A stretch of DNA of 29,518 bases. It comes from an uncultured Candidatus Saccharibacteria bacterium. GTDB taxonomy: Bacteria; Patescibacteriota; Minisyncoccia; UBA6257; JAUSGH01. Within the stretch, counting starts at the first letter, position 1, and every line of letters begins with the position of its first letter. The notes under the pieces were generated by a model that saw only the letters and a program-made list of their open reading frames with translations, was not told the origin of the DNA and did not search any database. This document shows, one piece after another, positions 2,223 through 8,606 of the stretch. Location: assembly GCA_964361805.1 (NCBI GenBank), contig CAYICF010000001.1, forward strand, positions 1-29,518, read 5' to 3'. A program made the translations under genes and the position numbers.

Positions 2223-2252
2223 TGATTTTGTTTTATATTATTAAACAGATTT

Positions 2253-2336
2253 GCCCTCGTGGTGGAACTGGCAGACACGTCAGCCTTAGGAGCTGATTCC
2301 CGTAAGGGATTGGAGGTTCAAATCCTCCCGAGGGCA
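2253..2336 (+). tRNA. tRNA-Leu(TAG)
   Basis: Acceptor GCCCTCG/CGAGGGC, anticodon arm TCAGC-CTTAGGA-GCTGA, long variable arm, T-loop TTCAAAT; no encoded CCA. Confidence 0.96.
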
Positions 2337-2344
2337 CACACATA

Positions 2345-2371
2345 AAAATATTCCCGTTTGGGGGATATTTT
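2345..2371 (+). terminator. Hairpin downstream of tRNA-Leu, likely terminator
   Basis: AAAATATTCCC-gtttg-GGGGATATTTT, 11-bp stem with one G-U pair. Confidence 0.55.
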
Positions 2372-2609
2372 ATGTGCTGGAACTTGAATCGGGAAGGGAG
2401 TGTCCAAAGCGCAGCCCACGCAATGCTGGGGCGAGCAGATCATTCGAATCCAGTTGGAATTACCACCAAATTACCTAAAGCCAAAATTTGCCTTGTGTTT
2501 AATTTTCCACAGATTTGCCTCTTGACAAGCTTTACGCTCAGCGCGCATTAACGTTCGCTTCGTCCCACAATCTTTTTGATTTTTTAGAAGACTGTTTTTT
2601 GTCTTTTAT

Positions 2610-2638
2610 TTGACAATAAAATTTACCTCCTTTATATT
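2610..2638 (+). promoter_or_regulatory. Sigma70-type promoter
   Basis: TTGACA (2610-2615), 17-bp spacer, TATATT (2633-2638); predicted start about 2645-2646, at the leader ATG. Confidence 0.75.
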
Positions 2639-2645
2639 GATCATT

Positions 2646-2714
2646 ATGCAACTTGGTCGAATCAACTTTTTTGGGTTTTACTTTTTCTCCACCCCCACAC
2701 AGGTGATTGGCTAA
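2646..2714 (+). CDS. Phe/Tyr-rich attenuator leader peptide MQLGRINFFGFYFFSTPTQVIG (22 aa), likely leaderless
   Basis: Translated by hand; codons TTT TTT GGG TTT TAC TTT TTC at 2667-2687; TAA at 2712-2714 just after the antiterminator strand. Confidence 0.75.
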   Translation: MQLGRINFFGFYFFSTPTQVIG

Positions 2715-2775
2715 GTTGTTTACGCTCGAAAACAATGAACCGCTCCAATCACCTTGGGGCGGTTTTCGTTTTTGA
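2693..2775 (+). terminator. Attenuator: mutually exclusive antiterminator and intrinsic terminator
   Basis: Antiterminator AGGTGATTGG (2701-2710) pairs perfectly with CCAATCACCT (2745-2754), extended by CCCCA/TGGGG; terminator AACCGCTCCA (2738-2747)/TGGGGCGGTT (2755-2764) followed by TTCGTTTTTGATTT. Confidence 0.8.
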
Positions 2776-2801: not shown

Positions 2802-3053
2802 ATGAGCGACAAACAGCGTTGCAGTGATGGCGTCCATTCGTACGTCGAAGAATCTCGCGTCGTGCTCCCCGTGCCCGGCGTCTGGGTGCGTAGCGAGAAG
2901 CTGGCGGTTGCTCCATATGTTATCGAGCGACGGTCGGTGTGCGAGCGCTGTGGCGCGACTCAAGAGTCGACGAGGGATTTGTCGCGGCACATCAATCCCT
3001 TTGACCTACCGCCCGACGTTCCCAAGTTTCGAGATTTTGATGGCTCATTTTAG
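2802..3053 (+). CDS. Small hypothetical protein (83 aa), possible Zn-binding (C-x4-H ... CERC)
   Basis: GAGGAG RBS 8 nt before ATG 2802; first gene after the attenuator. Confidence 0.65.
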   Translation: MSDKQRCSDGVHSYVEESRVVLPVPGVWVRSEKLAVAPYVIERRSVCERCGATQESTRDLSRHINPFDLPPDVPKFRDFDGSF

Positions 3054-3069
3054 AAAACGGAGGTGCGTC

Positions 3070-3405
3070 ATGGCTATAACAATCATTGTGACGCTCGAGG
3101 ACGGCGTGCAATGGCACGCGAACAACGTGCTCGCAATGGCCACGAGCCTAGGCCTGCGGGCGGAGATTCAGTCGATCCTCCTCCAAAGCGGCCCGATCGC
3201 CGAGAAGCCGATCGTGCGCGTTATCGCACGTGATGGCATTCTGCCCAACGGAACGATCACGCGGCACGCAAGCGCATTCCCGGCTACCGAGGTTTTCTCC
3301 GGACTTCCAGGCGTCCTGCGCGTCGAAACGCGCGACGAACCCGCTTCAGCCAATCCTAACATCCCGCTCGCCACGACTTCGGTCGCTGGCGAGTTTTTTT
3401 GTTAA
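3070..3405 (+). CDS. Hypothetical protein (111 aa) resembling a stand-alone ferredoxin-like/ACT regulatory domain of type I-beta DAHP synthases
   Basis: GGAGGT RBS; pattern IIVTLEDG...VLAMATSLGLRAEI...IVRVIARDG...EVFSGLPGVLRVE fits beta-alpha-beta-beta-alpha-beta; family assignment from memory only. Confidence 0.5.
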   Translation: MAITIIVTLEDGVQWHANNVLAMATSLGLRAEIQSILLQSGPIAEKPIVRVIARDGILPNGTITRHASAFPATEVFSGLPGVLRVETRDEPASANPNIPLATTSVAGEFFC

Positions 3406-3487
3406 TTTTTTTGGAAAACTTTCACTTTACACTTTCGTGCGGCCGCATGAAAGTGTAAAGTAATTCTTTCTTTCTCCTCTTCGCCGC

Positions 3488-4451: not shown

Positions 4452-4495
4452 CAGTTATCGTATTATCTCACGATCGTGAGATAATACGATAACTG
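4452..4495. repeat. Perfect 44-bp palindrome with no loop
   Basis: CAGTTATCGTATTATCTCACGA|TCGTGAGATAATACGATAACTG. Confidence 0.97.
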
Positions 4496-6384: not shown

Positions 6385-6393
6385 TCATCTAAG

Positions 6394-6465
6394 TCGGCTC
6401 GGCAGGAATCGGACCTGCGACCCTCGTCTTATAAGGACGACGCTCTGCCACTGAGCTACGAGCCG
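6394..6465 (-). tRNA. tRNA-Ile(TAT)
   Basis: Minus strand folds as CGGCTCG TA GCTC AGTGGCA GAGC G TCGTC CTTATAA GACGA GGGTC GCAGG TCCGATT CCTGC CGAGCCG A; anticodon TAT, A73, C4-G69. Confidence 0.9.
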
Positions 6466-7811: not shown

Positions 7812-8606
7812 TTACCGGAAATCGGGAATGACAATGTTCTGCTCGCAGCCCGAGCCGCGAACGATTTGGGGATGGGAGTGCTTGCATGATCCCTGCGCGC
7901 CGTCGAACCACAAGCCAATCTCGGCGTTCGTGGACGCAAGCATGCGCGCATAAATCGCTGGCTCGAATTCTCCATACGAGCGCTCGTTCGCCTTACTGCT
8001 CGTCATAATGATCCAACGAGAGAGGCGCTCAGCGAACCGACCGCTGTAGCAGCCGCCAATAACAGCAACGCCAAAGCGAGGCTGGATGGCGGAGAGATAG
8101 TCGGTGAGTTCGTGGGGGGTGATGACCCCCTCTTCAATCACGGCGCCGGCAGCACCGCCAGATTGAAGCCGTGTCGCGGGAGTGAATTTGATAAGCCCGT
8201 GAATCCCAGGAGTGGGGATTTGCCAGCGCGGGAAAACGGACCACCTTCCATGACCGCTGAAATGCACCCAGACAACATCTTGCGCATTGACCATGCGAGC
8301 AAGATACGCGAACACAAAATCGATATTCGTCTTGCTCGCGCGCTCGACAACGCCAAGCTGGAAGATATATTGAAACCCCTTGCGTTGCAATGCGGCGACG
8401 GCTAACCGGGAGGAATAAATATGCCGAGTCTCATTGTCTCCGCAAATGACAACACCAAATCCGCGTGGCGCACGATCGTTTTGGGCGGCGAGCGAATCAA
8501 GATGAGCGACGAGTCTCGGCTCCGGCGGCGGCGCGATCGTGCAGCTTGTCGCTGTAAACATCGGGATAACCAACAAGAGGCATCTGATATATGCATGCAT
8601 CGTCAT
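7812..8606 (-). CDS. Putative lipoprotein with clan CD (caspase/C13-like) cysteine peptidase domain
   Basis: Signal ending TATS-C; His motif VWVHFSGHG and Cys motif VIGGCYSG; GGGAG RBS. Confidence 0.7.
   Translation of the reverse strand: MTMHAYIRCLLLVIPMFTATSCTIAPPPEPRLVAHLDSLAAQNDRAPRGFGVVICGDNETRHIYSSRLAVAALQRKGFQYIFQLGVVERASKTNIDFVFAYLARMVNAQDVVWVHFSGHGRWSVFPRWQIPTPGIHGLIKFTPATRLQSGGAAGAVIEEGVITPHELTDYLSAIQPRFGVAVIGGCYSGRFAERLSRWIIMTSSKANERSYGEFEPAIYARMLASTNAEIGLWFDGAQGSCKHSHPQIVRGSGCEQNIVIPDFR

Follow-up and report, generated by a model that had tools for sequence, protein, structure and literature searches.

Control of transcription through a short translated leader is represented in enterobacteria by pheL-pheA, pheM-pheST, trpL and hisL, in which a short open reading frame (ORF) carries a run of regulatory codons (Phe codons in pheL and pheM; the biology of pheL is covered in PMC3082878). 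In leaders of the pheL/trpL type, mutually exclusive 1:2, 2:3 and 3:4 pairings are combined with an intrinsic terminator ahead of the first structural gene, and segment 2 becomes masked when a ribosome terminates at the suitably placed stop codon. These features recur in a genomic stretch of 29,518 nt, referred to below as the window, whose positions 2610-2775 have, as judged from sequence and predicted folding, a somewhat better than even chance of forming the promoter and leader region of an operon of two genes (2802-3405) under the control of a ribosome-mediated attenuator, probably sensing phenylalanine and tyrosine. The leader departs from the enterobacterial type in being leaderless rather than led by a Shine-Dalgarno (SD) sequence, in a codon run that mixes Phe with Tyr and Gly, in the position of the aromatic codons, which lie in the loop past segment 1 and not within it, and in the genes that follow, which are two orphans instead of genes for Phe biosynthesis or phenylalanyl-tRNA synthetase (PheRS), the Phe pathway not being found in the host.

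The leaderless start has a counterpart in the polycysteine short ORFs (sORFs) of mycobacteria (Canestrari et al., bioRxiv 10.1101/834739), where an AUG-first mRNA likewise opens with an unannotated first-cistron sORF bearing a run of one type of codon, and where stalling remodels the downstream RNA and switches on the genes of the operon. The mycobacterial sORFs act on translation, whereas the leader described here ends in a U-tailed intrinsic terminator and leaves the SD sequence of gene 1 outside its hairpins; the two also differ in amino acid and in lineage. The Salmonella leader mgtL carries a run of Pro codons. For the mgtA and mgtCBR leaders, translation of two short ORFs is expected to shape the stem-loops that control transcription (PMC3641672), and they would resemble the present leader in controlling a non-biosynthetic operon, with amino-acid supply as the would-be cue; their structures, amino acid and termination mechanism differ, and the lineages are unrelated. 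Searching the leader against Rfam 15 with cmscan, riboswitch classes included, gave nothing at gathering scores and, up to an E-value of 10, just chance-level unrelated matches. Rfam includes families of leader peptides, none of which the leader matches. A literature search returned no publication on transcription attenuation in the candidate phyla radiation (CPR), nor any on leader peptides or native riboswitches in Patescibacteria, and the claim of an earlier reading of the window from its letters alone (the sequence-only reading), that such attenuation is undescribed in CPR bacteria, holds within the literature searched.

The unit opens with a sigma-70-type promoter (Table 1) that scores an 11/12 match and ranks first among the 16 promoter-like sites of the first 12 kb. 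The ATG at 2646 lies 7 nt past the -10 hexamer, at the predicted transcript start, and has no SD motif ahead of it; the promoter and the leaderless ATG were thus correctly recognized in the sequence-only reading. Leaderless initiation appears plausible in the host organism from a pattern seen throughout its genome. The motif TANNNT ends 6-7 nt ahead of the first ATG in 83 of 458 long ORFs (6 nt in 12.7% of them and 7 nt in 5.5%, against about 2% for other offsets), and ORFs of this type more often carry TTG at -35 (16-24% versus 7%) and less often an SD-like motif (0-5% versus 14%).

The frame that starts at this ATG encodes the 22-residue peptide MQLGRINFFGFYFFSTPTQVIG, in which the motif F-F-G-F-Y-F-F named by the sequence-only reading is found as proposed. 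It is a short leader ORF with a codon cluster for related amino acids, six of seven being aromatic, and such a density is rare: six or more F, Y or W among seven residues occur in two of the 6822 ATG-initiated sORFs of 10-40 aa that the genome holds in six frames. Among the 78 sORFs located at most 60 nt from a terminator-like site, it is unique in having five identical residues in a seven-residue window. The stop codon lies 23 nt ahead of the terminator stem, and a coupling of the pyrBI type, sensing uridine triphosphate, was ruled out, a translating ribosome being unable to invade a stem located 23 nt past its stop. A type I toxin or other membrane peptide was ruled out as well, the hydrophobic stretch comprising 9 residues only.

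Gene 1 starts 28 nt after the U-tail in the window and 30 nt after it in L030, a Logan contig of 1238 nt that holds a second copy of the entire unit, including leader, gene 1, gene 2 and the convergent gene xer. This spacing leaves no room for a promoter belonging to gene 1, and since just 28 nt separate the U-tail from gene 1 in the window, genes 1 and 2 are to be regarded as transcribed through the terminator.

The leader has the complete 1:2, 2:3, 3:4 layout of a classical attenuator. In its minimum free energy (MFE) fold, a 5' hairpin (2648-2668/2701-2719) joins the first codons of the sORF with its last codons and stop; this 1:2 hairpin, which overlaps the sORF and was absent from the sequence-only reading, completes the pheL/trpL-type geometry which that reading had recognized. 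The perfect 10-bp antiterminator is also as described, AGGTGATTGG (2701-2710) being the exact reverse complement of 2745-2754. Its proposed 5-bp extension exists and is larger than thought: 2691-2699 pair with 2755-2763, giving an antiterminator of 18 bp that excludes the terminator by covering most of it and nearly the whole of its 3' arm. The inner hairpin exists with its bounds (formerly 2716-2721/2730-2735) widened, and the intrinsic terminator located between sORF and gene 1, described earlier as a 10-bp U-tailed structure at 2738-2764, does overlap the antiterminator and has a stem of 12 bp (Table 1). Positions 2745-2763 belong to the terminator and double as the 3' strand of the antiterminator (segment 3). 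The terminator is flanked by an outer A-U stem (2726-2733/2768-2775) and reaches -25.3 kcal/mol with these flanking pairs (z-score -4.5); the 5' hairpin, a 72-nt structure that is invariant between the two loci, does not rise above shuffled sequences when taken alone (z-score -1.4).

Table 1. Coordinates of the leader, of the genes that follow it and of associated features (positions are those of the window unless a contig is named)
Feature	Position	Strand	Description
Sigma-70-type promoter	2610-2638	+	TTGACA 2610-2615, 17-nt spacer, TATATT 2633-2638
Leaderless 22-codon sORF, MQLGRINFFGFYFFSTPTQVIG	2646-2714	+	TAA stop 2712-2714; 90% identical in L030
Segment 1 (5' strand of the 5' hairpin, anti-antiterminator)	2648-2668	+	codons 1-8; in MFE and consensus folds; identical in L030
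Regulatory codon run	2667-2687	+	TTT TTT GGG TTT TAC TTT TTC (F F G F Y F F)
Segment 2	2691-2719	+	pairs with segment 1 (via 2701-2719) or with the terminator (via 2691-2710); includes the stop codon
Inner hairpin inside the antiterminator	2715-2736	+	2715-2721/2730-2736
Intrinsic terminator	2737-2775	+	12-bp stem 2737-2748/2754-2765, loop 2749-2753, U-rich tail
Gene 1, 83-aa orphan	2802-3053	+	GAGGAG upstream; SD 2788-2793; 46% identical to the L030 gene (217-450)
Gene 2, 111-aa orphan	3070-3405	+	GGAGG upstream; predicted ferredoxin/ACT-like fold; 49% identical in L030
38-bp palindrome ending the unit	3424-3461		19-nt arms, 95% complementary; between gene 2 and xer
Leaderless signature, example sites in genome G000	C2:13779-, C3:17257-, C58:1345+

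Folding of the two conformers, a check that the sequence-only reading had named, yielded both of them. With a ribosome footprint stalled on the first Phe codon, the antiterminator fold has -28.5 kcal/mol and the terminator fold -30.6 kcal/mol in the window, and the corresponding values in L030 are -28.7 and -29.7 kcal/mol; in both loci the two folds are mutually exclusive and near-isoenergetic once segment 1 is masked. A footprint placed on the stop codon lets the terminator alone form in the constrained folds, and with the ribosome absent from the model the 5' hairpin and the terminator both form.

The complementarity on which the antiterminator relies was compared with dinucleotide shuffles. 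The duplex of the 91 nt upstream with the 5' part of the terminator has -28.2 kcal/mol, against -14.1 ± 2.9 kcal/mol for the shuffles, none of which reaches the observed value (0/2000); with the whole terminator as the target, 4 of 3000 do. The genome contains 231 terminator-like sites, and among the 227 with sufficient upstream sequence for scoring, the site of the leader ranks second in upstream complementarity. In L030, segment 2 and the whole terminator give -26.6 kcal/mol versus -18.8 ± 3.1 kcal/mol (52/3000 shuffles reach the observed value).

The L030 locus is a diverged copy. Its identity with the window is 20% upstream of the -35 hexamer, 60% in the promoter (hexamers and last bases ahead of the ATG), 90% in the sORF, 44% in the terminator, about 50% at the DNA level in genes 1 and 2, and 77% (DNA) or 82% (protein) in xer. 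The L030 promoter consists of TTGACA, an 18-nt spacer of diverged sequence and TATCAT, again with 7 nt to the ATG. Identity is unbroken over 2642-2684, beginning just ahead of the predicted start. The L030 sORF has 21 codons (MQLGRINFFGFYFTSPTQVIG), retains the codons of F F G F Y F unchanged and has its TAA at the same relative position; apart from one later change, variation within the sORF is confined to linker codons 14-17 and includes an in-frame deletion of 3 nt. Positions 2693-2719 show one change, T2708C, which is synonymous (Ile, ATT to ATC); in the consensus fold of the 5' hairpin it converts a G.U into a G-C pair, and L030 folded by itself to its MFE structure pairs the otherwise bulged G2659. 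The L030 terminator occupies the same place with a different sequence (a G+C-rich stem of 7 bp, then T6), and this locus folds into a matching 5' hairpin and terminator. The consensus fold of the two terminator stems contains two compensatory pairs along with several one-sided changes, and segment 2 of L030 pairs with its own divergent terminator over 18 bp with bulges (107-129 with 161-181), with an analogous inner hairpin (GUUGU...ACAAC) that has a different loop.

A third, partial view comes from a contig of 1027 nt (run X9) from another groundwater study, which matches 2643-2956 with 45 differences. Its listed differences in the leader are three, namely 2678 (TTT to TTC) and 2687 (TTC to TTT), both synonymous, and 2688 (TCC to CCC), in the variable linker, as given by a difference table that omits changes near the ends of aligned pieces and covers 2643-2677 incompletely; from 2775 on, differences occur every few bases. 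The three point changes located outside the linker, two in run X9 (2678, 2687) and one in L030 (2708), are all synonymous and in third positions. A low-coverage contig of a sister strain (L026, ENA ERZ1292631) diverges from the window at 2690-2696, right past the Phe codons, where some 30 bases of unrelated sequence and a stretch of N intervene until it rejoins the window at 2697; the cause may be an artefact of assembly or a variant leader.

The leader family is confined to one narrow groundwater lineage. The search of related genomes for a Phe-rich sORF with its stems, another check named in the sequence-only reading, succeeded with the full unit of L030 and part of it in run X9, and the broader scans came back empty. 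No homologue turned up when 60 relatives were searched at the DNA level or when 400 genomes of the order were searched with the gene 2 protein. A metagenome scan with the gene 2 alignment had as its sole match a near-identical contig from Hainich. The gene 2 family forms only three clusters among 1.84 billion representatives, and 5.8 billion clusters contained nothing further. On another contig, L022, gene 2, xer and ftsH are syntenic with the window and gene 1 is swapped for another gene, the contig ending ahead of any leader. A match of the covariance model of the 5' hairpin (model R1) in genome G071 (E 4e-5) was rejected as a chance hit because it falls inside a 410-aa ORF. From its translation alone, we take that ORF to resemble a class-V aminotransferase or cysteine desulfurase.

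If the leader works as a ribosome-mediated attenuator, transcription would begin at or beside A2646, so that the RNA would start with AUG and a 70S ribosome would load on it without an SD sequence. Four segments would then be engaged, segment 1 (2648-2668), segment 2 (2691-2719), segment 3 (2745-2763) and segment 4, which is the terminator's 3' arm and overlaps segment 3. With ample charged tRNA-Phe and tRNA-Tyr, the ribosome would reach the stop at 2712-2714 and mask 2700-2727 (segment 2), the terminator (2737-2765) would form and transcription would end near 2766-2773. Termination would also be expected when the sORF is not translated, through pairing of segments 1 and 2 and formation of the terminator. 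When charged tRNA-Phe or tRNA-Tyr is scarce, the ribosome would stall from codons 8-9 (2667 onward) and cover segment 1, leaving 2691-2710 free to capture 2745-2763 on their emergence; no terminator would form, and genes 1 and 2 would be read. The first Phe codons should matter most; stalls at later codons would free segment 1 behind the ribosome. In this scheme we infer where transcription starts, that the sORF is translated, what stalls the ribosome and in which direction control runs, translation being suggested by the kept frame, the synonymous changes and the leaderless signature of the genome.

Several results weigh against this mechanism. At equilibrium, a footprint covering -18 to +12 at the stall still leaves the terminator with a probability of about 0.9, and because the terminator dominates at equilibrium, the mechanism needs co-transcriptional kinetics in which the antiterminator forms first, a reliance it shares with the trp operon. 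The comparison consists of two complete copies and one contig seen partly, which are too few for formal covariation. When the 5' part of the L030 terminator alone is taken as the target, its complementarity is not above chance (442/2000 shuffles reach the observed value). Covariance model R1 detected no homologous leader in 150 relatives, and exact-pattern scans, with two patterns each, came back empty for some 185,000 species genomes and for viral contigs. The controlled genes match by sequence no amino-acid-related family, such a family being usual behind an attenuator and not strictly part of its definition. Finally, 17 codons of the sORF show no synonymous change in L030, which exceeds what coding needs and could be explained by a function of the RNA alone; since this occurs while xer is 77% identical, the constraint acting at the RNA level must be strong. 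The attenuator would itself impose a constraint on the nucleotides of the sORF, because segments 1 and 2 overlap the coding sequence. The earlier proposal of a Phe/Tyr-sensing attenuator keeps its anatomy, its geometry and the backing of a diverged copy in L030, and is held back by the availability of two full copies, by the dominance of the terminator at equilibrium and by an RNA-only switch that also fits.

Such an RNA-only switch, riboswitch-like or bound by a protein, is the alternative that fares best, and we consider it unlikely while giving it real weight. The 5' hairpin (2648-2719) would be its sensor and the sORF a by-product of the U-rich loop; binding of a small ligand or of a protein, which might be an operon product, would free 2745-2763 for the terminator if it stabilizes the 1:2 pairing and favour the antiterminator if it destabilizes that pairing. 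The same alternative folds would serve this switch equally well, and besides the lack of synonymous change noted above, the contrast between a sensor that is 90% identical (in the sORF region) and a terminator that is 44% identical follows a pattern typical of riboswitches. Yet the absence of a related Rfam match extends to E-values of 10, and in both loci the conserved RNA opens exactly on the AUG at the predicted start; frame and stop are preserved despite an indel of 3 nt, and each of the three point changes within the conserved part is synonymous. In the apical loop of the 5' hairpin, the bases that do not change are those of the aromatic codons, whereas the adjoining ones vary. The interior of this hairpin is large, weakly paired and pyrimidine-rich and, with its low z-score, unlike a compact aptamer.

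The promoter and the terminator, both strong, enclose a highly conserved RNA of 120 nt, which could instead be a small gene in its own right, encoding the 22-aa peptide or a small RNA of about 125 nt that acts in trans, genes 1 and 2 being expressed only by constitutive leakage through the terminator, an arrangement known from operons in which a small first product greatly outnumbers the later ones. There is precedent for attenuator RNAs and leader peptides that act in trans, rnTrpL and peTrpL of Sinorhizobium (PMC7968998, PMC7298713), and a role in trans could add to the constraint on the nucleotides. We regard this explanation as improbable, as it leaves unexplained why segment 2 is complementary over 18 bp to the terminator in each of two loci with different terminators, and as the hydrophobic stretch lacks the length of a membrane helix; moreover, the unit always lies 28-30 nt ahead of gene 1, without space for a second promoter. 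A role in trans is compatible with an attenuator rather than exclusive of it, and the terminated leader RNA might have such a second role. That a T-rich intergenic stretch past a tRNA gene combines by chance a random promoter match, a Phe-rich frame and a terminator is barely credible, for although T-rich DNA yields Phe codons in any frame and neither promoter-like sites (16 versus 13.5 expected) nor terminator-like sites (21 versus 17.4 expected) are enriched as a class in the region, the joint improbability of the features is high and chance is contradicted by L030 and the run X9 contig, the leader being 90% conserved against about 50% for its neighbours and 77% for xer. On balance, the leader is a genuine element, conserved and switchable, and a ribosome most likely reads it at its Phe and Tyr codons.

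Genes 1 and 2 have no sequence match in Pfam, NCBIfam, PHROG or PDB and are thus orphans, as the sequence-only reading had it. In gene 1, the residues C7, H12, C47 and C50 (C-x4-H ... C-x2-C) are conserved across the 46% identity with the L030 protein, which suggests a small zinc-binding protein (zinc ribbon), possibly one that binds nucleic acid. For gene 2, an AlphaFold2 model built on an alignment of three sequences predicts a beta-alpha-beta-beta-alpha-beta arrangement with a predicted local distance difference test (pLDDT) of 71, and Foldseek relates it to general ferredoxin/ACT-like folds (best E 2e-3; S6, IlvN, the NikR C-domain and the MgtC C-domain among them). Its match to the N-terminal domain of the Thermotoga 3-deoxy-D-arabino-heptulosonate 7-phosphate synthase (1vr6) has a Foldseek E of 0.011-0.027, a template modelling (TM) score of 0.43-0.48 and 20% identity, while Pfam and PDB gave no sequence match for gene 2 at E up to 10. 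A structure search of the ESM Atlas retrieved ACT-like clusters with TM scores of 0.56-0.62 from a query model with a pLDDT of 0.49. The predicted ACT/ferredoxin-like fold is a weak, nonspecific lead and gives no support for a link with Phe or Tyr.

The leader is located between the gene for tRNA-Leu(UAG) (2253-2337) and genes 1 and 2, whose ribosome-binding sites are strong and which are followed by the 38-bp palindrome, the convergent xer and ftsH. The interval that separates tRNA-Leu(UAG) from xer appears recombinogenic (window 2236-2519; L023, L026). An 11-nt direct repeat, ACAGATTTGCC, is present at the 5' edge of tRNA-Leu and at 2509-2519, strain variants have a 27-nt deletion (2486-2512) between ATTTGCC repeats, and the gene found in the place of gene 1 in L022 encodes an unrelated protein of 94 aa. 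The 3' end of tRNA-Leu (2330-2340) reads GGGCACCA, with an encoded CCA, in L023 and L026, and has one C fewer in the window and in L024. Another tRNA gene of the window, tRNA-Ile with a UAU anticodon, lies at 6393-6465. The palindrome at 3424-3461 belongs to a repeat family dispersed through the host genome (84-98% identical copies at G000 C32:218-267, C28:3188-3233, C53:1129-1172, C20:7279-7319 and 7932-7980) that looks like repetitive extragenic palindromes or miniature inverted-repeat transposable elements, and it may act as a bidirectional terminator. A perfect palindrome of 44 bp (4452-4495) lies in the spacer of the divergently oriented xer and ftsH; the syntenic spacer of L022 lacks it, and it could be an insertion or an operator-like site.

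The host assembly measures 566 kb at 92% completeness, relatives ranging from 0.4 to 1.3 Mb. Ribosomal protein L30 (PF00327), prephenate dehydratase, chorismate synthase and the RNA-binding domain of Rho (PF07497) were not found in this 92%-complete assembly, in which terminator-like hairpins are 2.6-fold enriched past the ends of long ORFs. Near-identical contigs come, according to their names, from the 0.1 and 0.2 µm filter fractions of Hainich groundwater. The window also contains adjacent small genes (3-293 and 345-713) matching the type IV secretion system (T4SS) pilin family PF18895 (E 6e-10 and 9e-9). The tiny genome, the failure to find L30 and biosynthesis genes, the T4SS-pilin genes and the small filter fractions make a CPR/Patescibacteria bacterium unable to make Phe a fair reading of the host, and the setting thus fits the probable CPR, auxotrophic organism assumed in the sequence-only reading. 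As PheRS is present while prephenate dehydratase and chorismate synthase were not found, the supply of Phe would be external and worth sensing.

To our knowledge, little is known of gene regulation in the Patescibacteria, whose genomes are tiny. A more far-reaching idea, which we hold tentatively and think rather unlikely, is that an auxotrophic, Rho-less CPR episymbiont gauges the external aromatic supply through this leader and, on shortage, induces a zinc-ribbon protein and a free-standing ACT-like protein, both small and specific to its lineage, as a minimal nutrient-sensing circuit in a group regarded as having few regulators, in which the gene 2 protein may itself bind Phe or Tyr. If the attenuator is real, the ribosome would serve as a regulator at almost no coding cost in a CPR bacterium, and a sensor of this kind in an auxotroph would report the delivery of a nutrient and not a biosynthetic need. 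It would also provide a handle on two orphan genes, as genes that respond to Phe/Tyr shortage. With a length of about 165 nt, the leader is self-contained and could be a native expression switch, a tool named as missing for Patescibacteria in a recent review (PMC11665869).

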